Positions 27,001 to 36,000 of a stretch of DNA of 46,612 nucleotides are shown one piece after another. Location: the NCBI GenBank assembly GCA_037443365.1, contig JBBIOM010000017.1, positions 1 through 46,612 on the forward strand, in the 5' to 3' direction. A program made the position numbers. This DNA comes from Armatimonadota bacterium (GTDB lineage Bacteria; Sysuimicrobiota; Sysuimicrobiia; Sysuimicrobiales; Humicultoraceae). Position 1 is the stretch's first letter. Each line of letters starts with the position of its first letter.

Positions 27001-30000
27001 CTCGGGCACGTTCGAGATCAACCAGCGGATCTTCGTCGCCGAGAAGTAGGTGCTGATGGGCAGTCCCGTGCGCGCGCGCACGTCGTCGGCCCATCCGGCC
27101 TCGATCAGCGCGCGGCAGTCGGGCTCGGTGCGTGTGTCCTGCCAGACGATGGCGTTGTAGATGGGGCGGCCTGTGCGCGCGTCCCATGCCACCACGGTCT
27201 CACGCTGGTTCGTGACCCCCGCGGCCAGCACGCGCCCGCGCGGGGATGAGGCCAGCGCCTCGCGCACCACTTCCTGCGTGCGAGCCCAGATCTCCAGCGG
27301 GTCGTGCTCCACCCATCCGGGCTGCGGGTAGATCTGCCGGTGCTCCCGGTAGGCCGATGACACCGCGCGTCCCCCCAGGTCGAACAGGATGCAGCGCGTG
27401 CCCGTGGTGCCCTGGTCGATCGCGGCAAGATAGCCCGTCATCCGTCACCTCGCCGTCTGCGACGCCTGGCCCTCTCGGGGAGCGGGGACGCGTCAAGAAC
27501 ATCCCGCGCATCTTGGGCGAAGCGCCCACGCAGGGATCCTAGGGAATCACTTGCACGATAGTCAGCAGCTCTTACGCAACTTCTCGAGGACTTCGCAGAT
27601 CTTCTCCACATCCAAGGCGATTTCCATCAGCCCCAGGTGCTCGGCCGACATGGCCGGGTCAATCTGATCCTTGATTACTGGTTCCATGATGTGATAGACG
27701 GGTAACCCGAGCGACACTCCCGCCAGCGCCCCCGCCCAACTTGGATCCCCCTTTGTGACGGTCTCGGCATAGAGTTCGGCGCTGTCCGCATCGGGCGCAC
27801 CCAGCACGACGATGACGTCGTCCTTGCCGTGTTGTTCTATGTAGTTCTTGATGCTCTCTTGACCCTCCAGGTCAAAGGCGCCGGCCGATGTTCAGACGAA
27901 ACACTGGGTCTGCGTGATGACCGGCTCTGCGCCGGCGCTCCTCACGCAGGCTTCGATGGCCGGACCCTGCACTCCATCCCGTTCACCGATGATGATGACC
28001 TTCGTCGACTTCAGCAGCATTCCGGCTACACACCTCCTTTGTTCCGTTCCAATAGGAATGACATCCCGTCGGCAAGCTGGGTCATGCGCCCCAAGAAGAG
28101 GCTCCCCTTGGCCACAAACATGGTGTTGTTCATCTCACCCGACAGCATCTTCCTGACCGCGTGTCCCAGCACGGGCACGGCGGAGGCGGTATGCCCCTGA
28201 GTGGGGGAGAAGCCGAGCATGCCGTGTTCTTCAACGAAGCGGTCGAGATCCGAGCGTTGGATCTCTCCGCGCAGGACCGCAAAGCTGCCGATGACCCGGT
28301 AGTTCGTCCTGGGAACATTGCCGCTTCCCTGCGGCTCGGTGATCTCGGGATTGTGCATTTCCGTGGCGTACTTGTCGATCTGCGTTAGTTTTAGTCCCAG
28401 CCGGTCCAGTGGTTGCACGACCAGGTTGTCGAAGATGGCCTGCTGGCTGGAACCCGAGGCGATCTCGTGCTTTCCAATGGAATCGAGCCGAATGACCGGG
28501 CTCTTCCCGTCATCCTGCCCCACCCGCACCGCGACGGCGGCGATCACGTCCTCCAGGATCGGCATGTCATGGCGAAGATGACCCTGGAACTTCATCCCGA
28601 GCTTGGCAAAGGAACCACCGGCCACGACAACCACATCCCTGAAGATTCCAGACGCGACCAGGCCCGCGGCCACCACGATGGCATGGATCGTGCCGGAGCA
28701 GAAGGCCTTGACATCGCCGCCCCCTGCTCTCGAGCACCCGCACAGCTCTCCGATGGCCTTCGCCATGTTGCCGCCGCCCCGGTTGTAGCGATCTCCGACC
28801 GCCTCCTCGCCGCCCCCCAGAAGGAAGTCCACGGCCTCGGCCCTCCCCGTCGCCGCGACCTGGTGCCGCAGCGCCAAGGCGCCGGAGGCCCTGACGGCCA
28901 GATTCTCCATCAGAATCTCCGCGGTGAGGTTGGGGTCTTCTTCATGCCCGGTTCGAACACACCCGACGAGCCGACCGCCTCGCTCGTACATGGGGAGGGT
29001 CATCCCATCGGTTAGCTGTTGCTCGATGTCGGCCAGGGAGACGCCGTTGCCGAGTCTCAGGAGATCCGCTTCCGAAAAGAGGGGGTGCTGCCTGAGTTTC
29101 GCCGTGACGTCGCGTACAAAGCCTTCTTCCAGCAAGACCAGCTGGAACTCATCGCAGATCTTCATCATTCCGTAGAACTCGTCCTCGGGCATGATCTCGC
29201 CAAAGGGGCCCCGTCGAGAGCCGTCACGCGCGGGATGCTTGTACCAGGGAGACGGAACACGCGCCAGGTCATCAGGGTCAAGATTGCCGATGAATACCTG
29301 GTTCGGTGGATAGGCGACGGCCTCTTCGAAGGTGCGCAGGTGGCTCCGGAACGACTCCAGCAAGGCGGGATTCTTCCTTATCTCACGCGACGGTTTGGAG
29401 CCGTGACAGGTCAGTCCGGGCACATGAGCGAGGAAATACGAAACCCCCCGCACGACGGCCGCTGCAGGTTGGTCATGGGCTGTAGGGCTCACGAAGGACA
29501 CCTTGCCAGACTGCACATCTTGTGCGCCGAGAGCGCGGCGGTCACGCCATCGCCTACGGCGGTAGCGATCTGCCTGTCCGAACCGTGCCGTATGTCGCCC
29601 GCGGCGAAGATCCCCGGGACAGACGTCTCCAGTTTCTCGTCCACCATCACGTACCCCTTGTCGTCCAGCGACACCAGGCCCTTGATATAGCCGGTGTTGG
29701 GCTCGATCCCGATTCGGACCAAGACGCCGCCCGCTGGCAGTGTCGTCCTCTCGCCTGTCAGGACATCGACCAACTCCACCTCCCTGACGTGGTCGTCGCC
29801 CCTGATGGCGTCAATCCTTGTCCCGCAGCGCATCTTGATCTTCGGGTCGGCCAGGGCCCTGTCGTGGAGAATCCTCGTGGCGAGCGGCTGAGACATGATC
29901 TCCACCACGATGATCTCAGAGGCGAGTCGCGACAGATACAGGGCTTCGGTCAACCCGCTGTCACCCCCGCCGGCTACCACGACGACACGATCCTTGAACT

Positions 30001-33000: not shown

Positions 33001-36000
33001 TTCTCGATGCGGGTCGTCTCGCCGAACTGGACATCGCGGATCTTGACTATCCCTAGCTCCAGCCGCACGATGCGCCTCCTCGTGTCGATGGCGTAGGTCC
33101 AGTTGACAAGGTCTTGGCGCGGACACAAACACCTGGGACTTCCACTCTGGGTTCCCGAACTCCTCCAGTCGGAGAGGGCCGGGCCGATCTCCAGCGCCGA
33201 CCGTGCACGGCGGCCGCCTGGCAGGGAGGATGCGGCGACGCCCAAGGCAAACCTACCTGCAGCCCGGCCGAGAAGCAGACCCAGGAGGTCGAGTACGTTG
33301 AAGGTCACCCAGTGGGCACTTCTTGCAGTCCTCATCGCGGCGCCGCTCGCCGTGGCGGCTGAAGTTCCTGTCGCGATCCGCTACTACGGGCACTCGTTCT
33401 TCCTGCTGACGGCCGGGGGCTTGCGCATCGCGATCGACCCGTACGGCGACATCGGGTACCCGATGCCCGAGGTCGAGGGAGACGTGGTGCTGGTGACACA
33501 CGAGCACCGGGATCACAACAACGCGGGGCTGGTGCGCGGCGCGCGCCGGGTCCTGCGGGGCCTGACCGAGGGTGGGCGGGATTGGGCCAAGATCCACGAG
33601 CGCATCGAAGGCGCCCTCGTCTACGCCGTGCCCTCGTTTCACGACGACCAGTTCGGAACCGCCCGCGGCCTGAACACCATCTTCGTCGTCGAGGTGGCCG
33701 GTCTGCGCATCGCGCATTTCGGGGACATCGGGCAGCCGCGCCTGACTGACGGCGTGCTGCGCGCGATTGGCCGGCTGGATGTCATGATGATCCCGGTGGG
33801 AGGGGCGCCGTTCACGATCGGGGCCCGCGAGGCCACGGAGATCACTTCCCAGATCCGCCCCAGGCTCGTCGTCCCGATGCACTACAAGACGGCGGCCAGG
33901 CCGGACTGGCCGGGGACGGACGAGCGCCCGTTTCTGGAAGGAAAGCCCGACGTGCTGCGCCTGGGCAGCCACACGCTCAGCGTCGCGCGCGACCATCTCC
34001 CGACGGCGACGCGTATCGTGGTGATGAACTGGCGCTAGCCGCGCGCCAGCAGGGCGCGGATCGAGGCTATCACCGCGCGGCCTTCGTCGCTGTCCGTGAC
34101 GAACTCTATCGCGCCCGGTGAGGGGACGCCCAACCCCAGTTCGACCGCGCGCCTTATCTGCTCCTGATCGAAGATGCGTCCGTCCGCCACCGGGCTGCCC
34201 ACCCCGTGCATGCGCAGCAGCGCCACGCCCGCGGCATCGAGCGCCACGCGGTCGGTGCCGGCAAGCACCACCCCGGGCCGCGCCAGGCGCCCGGCCTCGG
34301 GGCCGGCGTCCACAAACGCCAGGATCCCATCCAACACGACCATCGCAGGGCGGTAGAGCAGGTTCAGCTCGGCGATGAGCGAACGCTGCAGCGGAGAGCC
34401 GTGCAGCTCACGCATGTACTCGTAGCCGTCCGGACCCGTGCGCGCCACCATGCCCACCGAGTTCTTCAGCGCCATCGTGAACTGCCCGCCGAAGCGGTGG
34501 GTCTTCAGGCAGCAGGTCGAGATTATGAGATCCGCCCGCTCGAACAACACCGGGTAGAGGACGCCGCGCTGCCAGTGTCCCCGGGGAATGGGACGCGCCA
34601 CCCACTCGGACGCCGGGAGGGTCTCCAGGGGCACCACCCGCACGCCCATCTCGCGGCCCATCACGTCCAGCCCCTTCTCGCGGATGACCCGGGGCGTGTC
34701 GCCCATGCCGGCGCGGTCGGCGACGATGATCTCACGCGCACCGCCGGCCTTGCAGACATCAATGAGCGTGCGCAGTGTCTCCTCGTGGGTCGAAGCGGGG
34801 AAGGCGTGGGCGCTGTTCAGGTTGGGCTTGATAACCACCGACCGCGCTTCCAGGCGCATCGGGGGCAGGAGGCGAAGCGCGCGCAGCACACCGTCGCGGT
34901 GGCTGTCGGTCTTGACTAGCGCCACCCGGGCCGTCTCGGTCTCGGAGGCCTGTGCACGGGCAGGCCACATGCGCAGCGCGAGTGCACCACCTACGGTTGC
35001 GGCGGTCTTCAGGAATCGTCGCCGGCTCTGGCGCATAGCAGGATGTCCCCCTTGCCGCAAGAATTCGGAGGGTGGCTCCTGGTTCTCCTGCCTAGGGCGG
35101 GAGAAGCGCACCACCGGGAATCCGGTCATGCACCGATGCCCCGGGGGTGGCGCAGCCTGTACATTCGGTGCTGACGGCAGCCGGCCCGAGGGCGGCAGGC
35201 CGCCGAGCGGTGCGTCAGGTGATGTGCGCATGGCGAGGAAGAAGGCAGGCGAGATCAGGATAGACGAAGCATGGTGCAAGCGGTGCGGCATCTGCGTCGC
35301 GCTCTGCCCGCGCGCGGTCCTGACAGAGGGCGACGGAGGAATGCCCCGGGTTGTGGATCTGAACGCCTGCACGCTCTGCGATCTCTGCGTGCTGCGGTGC
35401 CCGGACTTCGCCATGGAGGTATTGGAGGACAAGGAGGCGCCATAGCCCGATGCAGCAGCCGCGACTGATGCAGGGAAACGAGGCCTGCGTGGAAGGGGCG
35501 CTGGAGGCCGGGCTCCAGTTCTTCGCCGGGTACCCGATCACGCCATCCACGGAGATAGCCGAGATGCTCGCTGAGCGCCTGCCCAGGGCCGGCGGGGTGT
35601 TCATACAGATGGAGGACGAGATAGCCGGCATGGCCGCTGTCATCGGCGCCTCACTGGCGGGGATGCGCTCGATGACGGCGACCTCGGGACCCGGCTTCTC
35701 GCTCAAGCAGGAGAACCTGGGCTACGCGGCCCTCACCGAGACGCCCTGCGTGGTGGTGAACGTCCAGCGCGTGGGCCCCTCAACGGGCATGCCGACCTCG
35801 CCGGCGCAGGGCGATGTGATGCAGGCGCGCTGGGGCACGCACGGAGACCACCCGATCGTGGTGCTCTCGCCTTCTTCGGTGATGGAGACGTACGTGCTCA
35901 CCGTGAGGGCCTTCGCGATCTCCGACGAGCTGCGTCTGCCGGTGGTCCTTCTGACCGACGAGATCACGGGACACATGCGCGAGCGGGTGGCGTTGCCCGA

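Follow-up and report, generated by a model that had tools for sequence, protein, structure and literature searches.

Glycine reductase is the standard textbook example of selenoprotein-dependent substrate-level phosphorylation, and in the reductive glycine pathway it forms the branch leading to acetyl units. In the Clostridia Peptoclostridium acidaminophilum, Acetoanaerobium sticklandii and Clostridioides difficile, the canonical gene order is grdX-trxB-trxA-grdE-grdA-grdB-grdC-grdD. The product of the last gene, GrdD, reportedly carries an acetyl thioester on Cys359 and is said to release it by phosphorolysis. The canonical complex thus yields acetyl phosphate, coupled to acetate kinase. The available parts of four papers (PMC7547702, PMC12827605, PMC13688921 and PMC13188914) present models that assume GrdC, GrdD and acetyl phosphate. 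In the part available, PMC7547702 also lists GR_Ca and GR_Cb for Desulfovibrio desulfuricans G11 in a figure legend, and its genome survey accepts a glycine reductase at five of seven genes, a rule that would hide the absence of GrdD.

The window, a 46,612-nucleotide stretch of one contig from a Sysuimicrobiota genome, has an intact selenoprotein glycine reductase operon of a GrdD-less class, and this description as a whole is held with high confidence. Profile searches of the contig place five genes on the minus strand from 33068 to 27562 in the order grdE-grdB(Sec)-trxB-grdC-grdA(Sec), as in the survey's finding, and all five reading frames of the cluster are intact. Protein B, which binds the substrate, is of the glycine type, and protein C consists of GrdC alone.

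The first gene (31797..33068, minus strand) encodes a GrdE-like proprotein, the alpha/beta part of protein B, with a PF09338 score of 613.8 bits. The match covers residues 91-509 of a longer open reading frame that extends up to 33335; this extension is probably an artefact of high G+C, and the GTG at 33068 is the likely start. The score against NF040793 is 565 bits, below the cut-off of 780. The motif S-G-N-C237-V-S is identical in 16 of 18 HSPs of GrdD-linked loci. We take C237 to be the self-cleavage or processing site that forms the pyruvoyl group, the role that the processing cysteine of GrdE reportedly has.

Selenoprotein B is encoded by grdB (30449..31765, minus strand; glycine-specific equivalog model TIGR01917, 627.6 bits, cut-off 602.2), with the Sec TGA at 30712-30710. 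The models for other substrates score below their cut-offs (sarcosine 645 against 800, betaine 528 against 775). The in-frame TGA is kept in 73/73 HSPs of related loci and in 20/20 of GrdD-linked loci. The Sec motif reads U-G-T-D-T-R-C here and U-G-T-C-T-R-C in 19 of the 20 GrdD-linked loci. The GrdB motif named in the available part of PMC13188914 is U-x-x-C-x-x-C, and the GrdB of the window does not match it, having U-x-x-D-x-x-C instead.

A trxB-like thioredoxin reductase gene follows (29489..30436, minus strand), which scores 314.5 bits on TIGR01292, under the cut-off of 343.45; a homologue also lies within the grd cluster in locus L019 and in several Bacilli loci. The gene grdC (28026..29516, minus strand) encodes the thiolase-fold subunit of protein C, here of the GrdD-less type. 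It scores 652.4 bits on NF040746 (cut-off 450), where GrdD-linked members score 693-837 bits. Directly after it lies grdA (27562..28020, minus strand; NF040748 202.3 bits, cut-off 130), whose start is reported as overlapping the end of grdC (28020 vs 28026). The redox motif C-x-x-U of selenoprotein A is present as C-F-V-U43 with an in-frame TGA at 27894-27892, and this codon is kept in 74/74 related HSPs. SelA and SelB are encoded in the genome, adjacent to each other on contig C4.

The locus shares with the canonical system the Sec positions of proteins A and B, the processing motif of GrdE, a thioredoxin reductase in the cluster, and a full-length GrdC homologue (43-52% identity) with the same FabH-type Cys. 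It differs in that GrdD is missing, in that grdA stands after grdC rather than before grdB, and in that its GrdC lacks a second conserved Cys (C221) and departs from the canonical protein at no fewer than eight fixed positions. The genome also has no Ack or Pta to use acetyl phosphate.

The best match to the GrdD model (NF040747, cut-off 350) in the 2.22 Mb genome has 19.8 bits and is PlsX. This protein (341 aa, 356 bits) is the sole member of PF02504 in the genome at E<=1. Phosphorolysis of an acyl thioester, the activity missing from the locus, is that of this PlsX/GrdD family; the PlsX seen here is a housekeeping gene, located directly upstream of fabH in a lipid cluster on contig C8, away from grd. 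The survey's finding had rested on a GrdD model that lacked a positive control, and this point is now settled. In 401 genomes of one Bacillota-type phylum, the same model and search gave scores over the cut-off in 121, at 480-605 bits. GrdC and GrdD occur together in 123 genomes of this control phylum, and GrdC occurs without GrdD in only 3. In the phylum of the window, GrdC is over its cut-off in 22/94 genomes and GrdD in 0/94. The pattern of GrdC without GrdD, reported earlier for relatives of the same class, reaches beyond that class. It also holds for the 55 other genomes with the closest GrdC relatives (5 isolates and 50 others, several of them closed chromosomes), where GrdD is over the cut-off in 0/55.

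No substitute for GrdD is encoded in the neighborhood of these genes. Among 80 related loci the sole widespread neighbor is a thioredoxin of 110 aa, found at 32 loci, and the next most common neighbor cluster occurs at 8 of the 80. The longer GrdC homologues are GrdC-GrdD fusions in 50/50 cases, with no other partner.

The GrdD-less loci form a large and apparently undescribed class across many bacterial phyla. The 55 genomes with the closest GrdC relatives span at least ten phyla, with cultured Bacilli among them. Taxa with such loci include Desulfobacterota, Chloroflexota, Bacilli, Acetothermia, Tectimicrobiota, Binatota, Acidobacteriota, Methylomirabilota and others, and the cultured carriers are Brevibacillus massiliensis, Effusibacillus consociatus, Cytobacillus oceanisediminis, Lentibacillus kapialis and Desulforhabdus sp. 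TSK. The genes of the class follow a distinct order, commonly grdE-grdB-grdC-(trx)-grdA, often with the small thioredoxin between grdC and grdA; in 68 of the 80 related loci grdA lies no more than 700 bp downstream of grdC.

The class also has its own GrdC signature. In the tree, a branch with an SH-aLRT of 100 sets the 20 GrdD-linked GrdC rows apart as a separate lineage. The fixed differences from these 20 rows to 89 GrdD-less rows are C221 to V, N225 to Y, N290 to K, D293 to G, Q369 to H and G427 to A. The signature of the GrdD-less proteins is V221, R224, Y225, K251, K290, G293, H369 and A427, and the GrdC of the window has all of these residues. The loop E-E-A-V-G-D-R-Y (218-225) thus carries an Arg and a Tyr, where GrdD-linked GrdC has its second Cys (C221). 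The 80 loci were collected by two scan patterns, one of which was EEAVGDRY, so that finding V221, R224 and Y225 conserved at 100% in these rows is partly circular. The 12 rows of the window's phylum that were found by HMM are free of this circularity, as are K251, K290, G293, H369 and A427. One genome (G163) has no GrdD, yet its GrdC belongs to the GrdD-linked clade and has C221, so the link between the signature and a missing GrdD is not strict.

The fold of GrdC was compared with that of the thiolase superfamily. The invariant Cys of GrdC, C273 of P0004 or C254 when the trimmed sequence is numbered, is aligned to the active-site Cys of FabH. A search of GrdC against the PDB with hmmsearch matched 8vdb at an E-value of 3.7e-6 with the Cys columns aligned, and hhalign gave 94% probability over 56 columns around the Cys only. 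H369 and H423 are candidate partners of this Cys by spacing only, and the 56-column alignment leaves the His/Asn positions unmapped. The AF2 model of GrdC has a pLDDT of 92.2, and its sole low-confidence stretch (220-229) is the signature loop. Foldseek gave this model a probability of 1.00 for SpoVAD, FabH and thiolases, and the top PDB matches were SpoVAD, FabH (including its acetyl-CoA complex), BioZ, OleA and thiolases. GrdC therefore shares its fold with FabH/KAS III and other acyl-CoA enzymes of the thiolase superfamily (8vd9, 8vdb, 3il4, 1hnk, 1mzj), and the nucleophilic Cys lies in the same sequence context. In FabH/KAS III-type enzymes the Cys is acetylated, and this intermediate exchanges with CoA. 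Compared with them, GrdC has about 140 extra N-terminal residues and an identity of only 12-19%, and it would receive its acyl group from a selenoether on GrdA rather than from acetyl-CoA.

The genes for acetate metabolism bear on the product of the reaction. Neither Ack (PF00871) nor Pta (PF01515) is matched in the genome at E<=1, while the same searches match 9-10 of 14 control genomes, which upholds the absence claimed earlier. A PduL-type phosphotransacylase and an acylphosphatase also have no match in the genome, with positive controls. The genome therefore encodes nothing known to use acetyl phosphate, and a product other than free acetyl phosphate is the most economical for this genome. 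The genome has two fused ADP-forming acyl-CoA synthetases of 717 and 705 aa, complete in their domains, where the survey's finding had named one ADP-forming acetyl-CoA synthetase, and the AMP-forming AcsA scores 950 bits. PMC11604079 (section 10) describes pta and ack as absent in all MAGs of the phylum and links acs to its acetate metabolism. Among the other 55 GrdD-less genomes, Ack and/or Pta occur in 27, both in 13 and neither in 28. There is therefore no general link between losing GrdD and losing acetyl phosphate metabolism, and acetyl phosphate could still be the product in the class overall. Ack is present in 55/55 GrdD-bearing genomes; this contrast is confounded because those genomes all belong to one phylum. 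The earlier interpretation is thus partly supported: GrdD, Ack and Pta are indeed missing from this genome, and its terminal step may well proceed without release of acetyl phosphate.

Acetyl-CoA is the preferred candidate for the product of the GrdD-less glycine reductase, with a chance close to even. Acetyl-CoA or another thioester, which the survey had also suggested, would plausibly fit the thiolase/FabH fold and conserved nucleophile of GrdC. In the proposed mechanism, GrdE/GrdB would bind and deaminate glycine and pass the carboxymethyl group to the selenocysteine of GrdA. GrdC would then accept the group as an acetyl thioester on its FabH-type Cys (C254) and, since there is no GrdD for phosphorolysis, would release it to coenzyme A as enzymes of the thiolase superfamily do, giving acetyl-CoA and not acetyl phosphate. 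The flexible loop E-E-A-V-G-D-R-Y of GrdC may participate. The acetyl-CoA could be assimilated, or the two ADP-forming acyl-CoA synthetases could convert it to acetate with formation of ATP. GrdA would be re-reduced by TrxB and a thioredoxin encoded elsewhere. The broader statement, that in a class spanning many phyla GrdC alone turns Se-carboxymethyl-GrdA into acetyl-CoA in a phosphate-independent step from glycine, is tentative and has somewhat less than an even chance.

It is possible but unlikely that acetyl phosphate is still the product. GrdC might have a phosphate site of its own, in which the Arg, Lys, Tyr and His substitutions bind Pi, or PlsX might carry out the phosphorolysis. The clade-specific residues of GrdC are indeed largely basic (K22, R25, R224, K290 and H369), and PlsX is the nearest GrdD relative in the genome and a phosphate acyltransferase homologous to GrdD; the 27 GrdD-less genomes with Ack and/or Pta also agree with this reading. 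However, acetyl phosphate would lead nowhere in this genome, which has no Ack, Pta, PduL or acylphosphatase. In addition, 28 of the other GrdD-less genomes lack both Ack and Pta, and plsX belongs to the plsX-fabH lipid cluster, apart from grd.

Hydrolysis of the thioester by GrdC to free acetate seems rather improbable. The system would then serve as an electron sink or for glycine catabolism without substrate-level phosphorylation, and AcsA would re-activate the acetate. AcsA is present and, as noted in PMC11604079, acs is tied to the acetate metabolism of the phylum; the class also occurs in many non-fermentative and partly aerobic lineages (Bacilli, Pyrinomonadaceae, Entotheonella, Binatia). 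Such a reaction would nevertheless waste the energy of the thioester, and thiolase-fold enzymes usually transfer acyl groups to thiols or carbanions. The distinct GrdC signature, strictly kept across phyla, suggests a specific acceptor site.

A reaction outside the textbook scheme, in which a different acceptor (ACP or a low-molecular-weight thiol) would receive the C2 unit, or a decaying relic, is decidedly unlikely. The Asp in the GrdB motif of the window would be in line with this, as would the many GrdD-less loci whose protein B pairs have no processing Cys and stand well apart from every named substrate type. The five intact frames, the conserved Sec codons and the 95% conservation of GrdC within the genus argue against these readings, and GrdE and GrdB share 55-65% identity with their counterparts at GrdD-linked loci (glycine-type by NCBIfam scores) and have the same processing motif. 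A GrdD that exists but was missed, through a gap in the 69-contig draft or divergence too great for NF040747, is extremely improbable, since the genome is 97.7% complete, the operon lies mid-contig with grdA right behind grdC, true GrdD scores so far above the single PF02504 member here, and no genome among the 94 of the phylum or the further 55 is over the cut-off.

If a large class of glycine reductases works without GrdD, the pathways predicted for many uncultured phyla would have to be revised, for example the acetogenesis proposed for CSP1-3. The division of labor between GrdC and GrdD would become testable by natural contrast, and the cultured carriers put the question within experimental reach. 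An enzyme system that converts glycine directly to acetyl-CoA would be of interest for synthetic C1 assimilation, as a new route for engineering. In autotrophs that lack Ack and Pta, such as CSP1-3/Sysuimicrobiota, it would also provide the final step that the reductive glycine pathway is missing.

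The grd operon occupies the minus strand of the window as five genes arranged head to tail, in a 2.22 Mb draft genome of 69 contigs (97.7% complete; the window makes up all of contig C17 and has about 70% G+C). The first gene encodes a GrdE-like proprotein (33068-31797; PF09338, 613.8 bits) and the second encodes GrdB (31765-30449), which scores 627.6 bits with TIGR01917 against a cut-off of 602.2. They are followed by a TrxB-like reductase (30436-29489), whose TIGR01292 score of 314.5 bits is below the cut-off of 343.45. GrdC (29516-28026) and GrdA (28020-27562) complete the operon, with 652.4 bits in NF040746 (cut-off 450) and 202.3 bits in NF040748 (cut-off 130), respectively.

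GrdB and GrdA each contain a single in-frame TGA (30712-30710 and 27894-27892). Since a stop codon is kept at this position in 73/73 GrdB HSPs and 74/74 GrdA HSPs from related loci, and the genome encodes SelA (517 bits) and SelB (335 bits) side by side on contig C4, the reading of both codons as selenocysteine is sound. Stem-loops 14-17 nt past the two TGA codons are no better than shuffled sequences (z -0.08 and -0.66) and lend no SECIS support. The GrdE motif S-G-N-C-V-S is the same in 16 of 18 HSPs from loci that carry GrdD (GrdD-linked loci), and its Cys is presumably the self-processing site yielding the pyruvoyl group. The GrdB selenocysteine motif (30692-30712) is U-G-T-D-T-R-C in the window and in its closest relative (L019:7354-8664). 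Among 20 GrdD-linked loci, U-G-T-C-T-R-C occurs in 19, and the fourth residue is S, G or C in other GrdD-less loci. Proteins A and B fit a glycine reductase, except that GrdB has U-x-x-D-x-x-C in place of U-x-x-C-x-x-C.

The survey's finding was that this operon lacks GrdD, and the search of the whole genome agrees. The GrdD model NF040747 tops out at 19.8 bits, and the match is the genome's one PF02504 protein, PlsX (341 aa, 356 bits), which is encoded directly upstream of FabH. GrdD is truly absent from the genome. The survey had no positive control for the GrdD model; one now comes from a sample of 401 genomes of the phylum to which the Bacillota MAG G141 belongs, where GrdD exceeds the cut-off of 350 bits in 121 genomes (480-605 bits) and GrdC exceeds its own in 122. 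When the GrdC and GrdD tables are compared, both subunits occur in 123 of the control genomes, GrdC occurs without GrdD in three (G141, G163 and a contig-edge fragment in G548) and two carry merely a GrdD fragment; therefore, the two subunits are almost inseparable where the GrdD-linked type exists. In the window's phylum, GrdC is over the cut-off in 22 of 94 genomes and GrdD in none (best score 26.8 bits). Under this working control the survey's observation as a whole, an intact five-gene operon with GrdD absent, is confirmed.

About ten of the GrdD matches in the control phylum sit inside open frames of 828-953 aa. Clostridia-type genomes and metagenomes commonly encode natural GrdC-GrdD fusions (828-974 aa; loci L128-L133; proteins P0006-P0055). 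A fusion partner of GrdC other than GrdD was rejected for proteins of 869-2480 aa, the range searched, since each of the 50 longer homologues of the GrdC of the window (869-974 aa) joins GrdC to GrdD, with PF19364 plus PF02504; fusions to small domains fall outside this range.

The GrdD-less arrangement extends well beyond the window. A GrdC alignment, used to scan a single genome for each GTDB species with EEAVGDRY as one of two collecting patterns, gave 80 loci. The window GrdC shares 65-73% identity with its counterparts in Desulfobacterota, Chloroflexota and 'Deltaproteobacteria' MAGs, and 51-60% with those in Bacilli, Acetothermia, Tectimicrobiota (Entotheonella), Binatota, Acidobacteriota, Methylomirabilota and others. 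GrdD was searched in 55 of these 80 genomes, the remainder being mostly short-contig genomes. It is over the cut-off in none of five isolates (Lentibacillus kapialis, Brevibacillus massiliensis, Cytobacillus oceanisediminis, Desulforhabdus sp. TSK and Effusibacillus consociatus) and has no match at E<=1e-10 in 50 further GrdC-bearing genomes. GrdD-less grd loci are a widespread class, and since the complex of the window lacks GrdD, it should be filed with this variant and not as a member of canonical glycine reductase. Searches of open-access full text and bioRxiv gave no mention of GrdD-less glycine reductase clusters, and an earlier remark in a subscription paper is possible; a 2026 selenoproteome review gives protein C simply as GrdC (PMC13188914).

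The order in the 20 GrdD-bearing loci examined is trxB-grdE-grdA-grdB-grdC-grdD, unlike that of the GrdD-less loci. In the latter, grdA follows grdC at a distance of no more than 700 bp in 68 of 80 loci; of the 69 whose downstream sequence reaches 700 bp or more, 65 show this order. Clustering of 3083 ORFs within 9 kb of grdC at the 80 loci brought out no apparent neighbour that would be a non-homologous substitute for GrdD. The most common cluster, present in 32 loci, is a thioredoxin of about 110 aa with the motif W-G-P-x-C-x-P-C between grdC and grdA (e.g. L020:4582-4917), and the next most common occurs in 8. The best NCBIfam match of this thioredoxin is clostridial TrxA (111 bits, cut-off 140). 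It is missing from the window, and the only thioredoxin seen in the genome is a canonical W-C-G-P-C protein on contig C9 (C9:32845-33156). Many GrdD-less loci (L020, L038, L008 and many of L019-L098) also have one to three extra GrdE/GrdB-like pairs. These pairs have S-G-S-F-M-P or T-G-P-Y-R-S instead of the processing Cys, and they score far under every named substrate model (GrdE-like 181-281 bits, GrdB-like 374-572 bits).

GrdC itself differs between the two types. A quick maximum-likelihood tree built on 109 GrdC rows places the 20 GrdD-linked rows on one side of a single branch (SH-aLRT 100); because the tree is unrooted, it does not separate gain from loss of GrdD. The differences between the types are fixed at several positions: in the trimmed 477-aa core (full ORF = +19), the GrdD-linked columns read E-E-A-C221-G-D-(M/I/V)-N225, R251, N290, D293, Q369 and G427, and the 89 GrdD-less rows read E-E-A-V221-G-D-R224-Y225, K251, K290, G293, H369 (89%) and A427. 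The complete conservation of 221-225 in the rows of the 80 loci is partly built in, as EEAVGDRY was used to collect them; no such circularity affects the other positions or the 12 rows of the window's phylum, which an HMM search collected and in which the motif is invariant. The NF040746 scores are bimodal as well, with 693-837 bits for GrdD-linked against 481-665 bits for GrdD-less GrdC. The signature was rejected as a predictor of GrdD absence, with G163 as the exception. This locus (L150, G163:C20:5000-20000) reads grdA-grdC-(Na+/solute symporter)-grdB-grdE and its GrdD match is at the PlsX level of 25 bits; its GrdC keeps C221 and groups within the GrdD-linked clade, where its branch is long (0.85). 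G163 may represent an independent loss of GrdD.

The window's phylum holds two unrelated GrdC lineages (L004-L014 against L019-L033). The four rows of the window's genus nest among Desulfobacterota and Chloroflexota sequences (SH-aLRT 100), and eight rows from three other families of the phylum form a separate clade, which points to at least two horizontal acquisitions of GrdC.

GrdC has a thiolase fold with a conserved nucleophile. Its profile matches FabH structures (8vdb, E 3.7e-6; 1mzj; 3il6), and the profile alignment places the invariant Cys of K-A-F-C-x-G on the FabH nucleophile. An hhalign comparison with FabH of this genome and four others gives 94% probability over just 56 columns around the Cys, too few to place the catalytic His and Asn of FabH on GrdC. 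An AlphaFold2 model built from 69 sequences (pLDDT 92.2, pTM 0.93) has SpoVAD, FabH (including an acetyl-CoA complex), BioZ, OleA, PqsD and thiolases as its top Foldseek ranks, all with probability 1.00. The only stretch with pLDDT <50 is 220-229, the signature loop. H369 was considered as the catalytic His and dropped, because the alignment spans only those 56 columns. An alternative register sets N-Y-R-x-I (386-390) against what we take to be its FabH counterpart, N-x-R-I, and would put Pro at the catalytic-His position.

The genome encodes no known acetyl-phosphate enzyme. The absence of acetate kinase and Pta noted in the survey is borne out, and matches to Ptb, PduL-type phosphotransacylase and acylphosphatase are likewise lacking in the genome, while each search finds matches in control genomes. 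The main text of the study of phylum CSP1-3/Sysuimicrobiota, which we take to be that of the window, gives pta and ack as missing from all MAGs of the phylum and nowhere uses 'glycine reductase', 'grd' or 'selen' (PMC11604079). The genome does encode two fused ADP-forming acyl-CoA synthetases with the full domain set, and AcsA (950 bits). Among 55 other GrdD-less genomes (completeness not given), Ack is present in 21 and Pta in 19; 27 have either or both and 28, including B. massiliensis and E. consociatus, have neither. C. oceanisediminis is one of those with both. Ack is found in 55/55 GrdD-bearing genomes tested, but these are all from one phylum, so the contrast is not independent evidence.

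In work by Arkowitz and Abeles, Kohlstock et al. (2001) and Andreesen (2004), protein C is reported to turn Se-carboxymethyl-GrdA into an acetyl thioester, and Cys359 of GrdD to carry this thioester for phosphorolysis. In the absence of GrdD, the acetyl group would stay on C254 of GrdC (C273 of the full ORF, P0004) and then be released to CoA, like FabH in reverse. C221 of the GrdD-linked enzyme may pass the acetyl group to GrdD, and the loop that lacks it and has R224 and Y225 may make an acceptor site. The survey's interpretation is supported in part: the absences of GrdD, Ack and Pta stand, and acetyl-CoA as the product has a little less than an even chance. Acetyl phosphate, whether GrdC makes it unaided or together with the PlsX that the genome does encode, is an unlikely product. 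Free acetate seems somewhat less likely again, and a different acceptor or a non-functional system is slightly more doubtful still. That GrdD is present and was missed is very improbable.

The Rfam search of 27000-34000 at E<=1 has zero matches; therefore, there is no glycine riboswitch. The operon region showed no terminator-like site, including between grdA and glpK, and no convincing promoter, and no RNA dataset is listed as carrying the operon in public sequencing runs. On the downstream side, glpK (25936-27441, minus strand) lies 120 bp after grdA in a glycerol-type cluster (20051-27441) with a GlpD-like DAO/DAO_C dehydrogenase (21723-23219), an FAD-linked oxidase and a GMC oxidoreductase. 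Upstream is a divergent metallo-beta-lactamase-fold gene. Between it and the genes of a two-subunit 2-oxoacid:ferredoxin oxidoreductase lies the gene of a 465-aa DUF362 protein (34035-35432, minus strand) with a weak TAT-signal match (E 0.006). The oxidoreductase (35450-37380, plus strand; POR_N plus PFOR_II, then TPP_enzyme_C) is encoded on the opposite strand, some 2.4 kb upstream of grdE. If it is a pyruvate synthase, it would convert acetyl-CoA to pyruvate.
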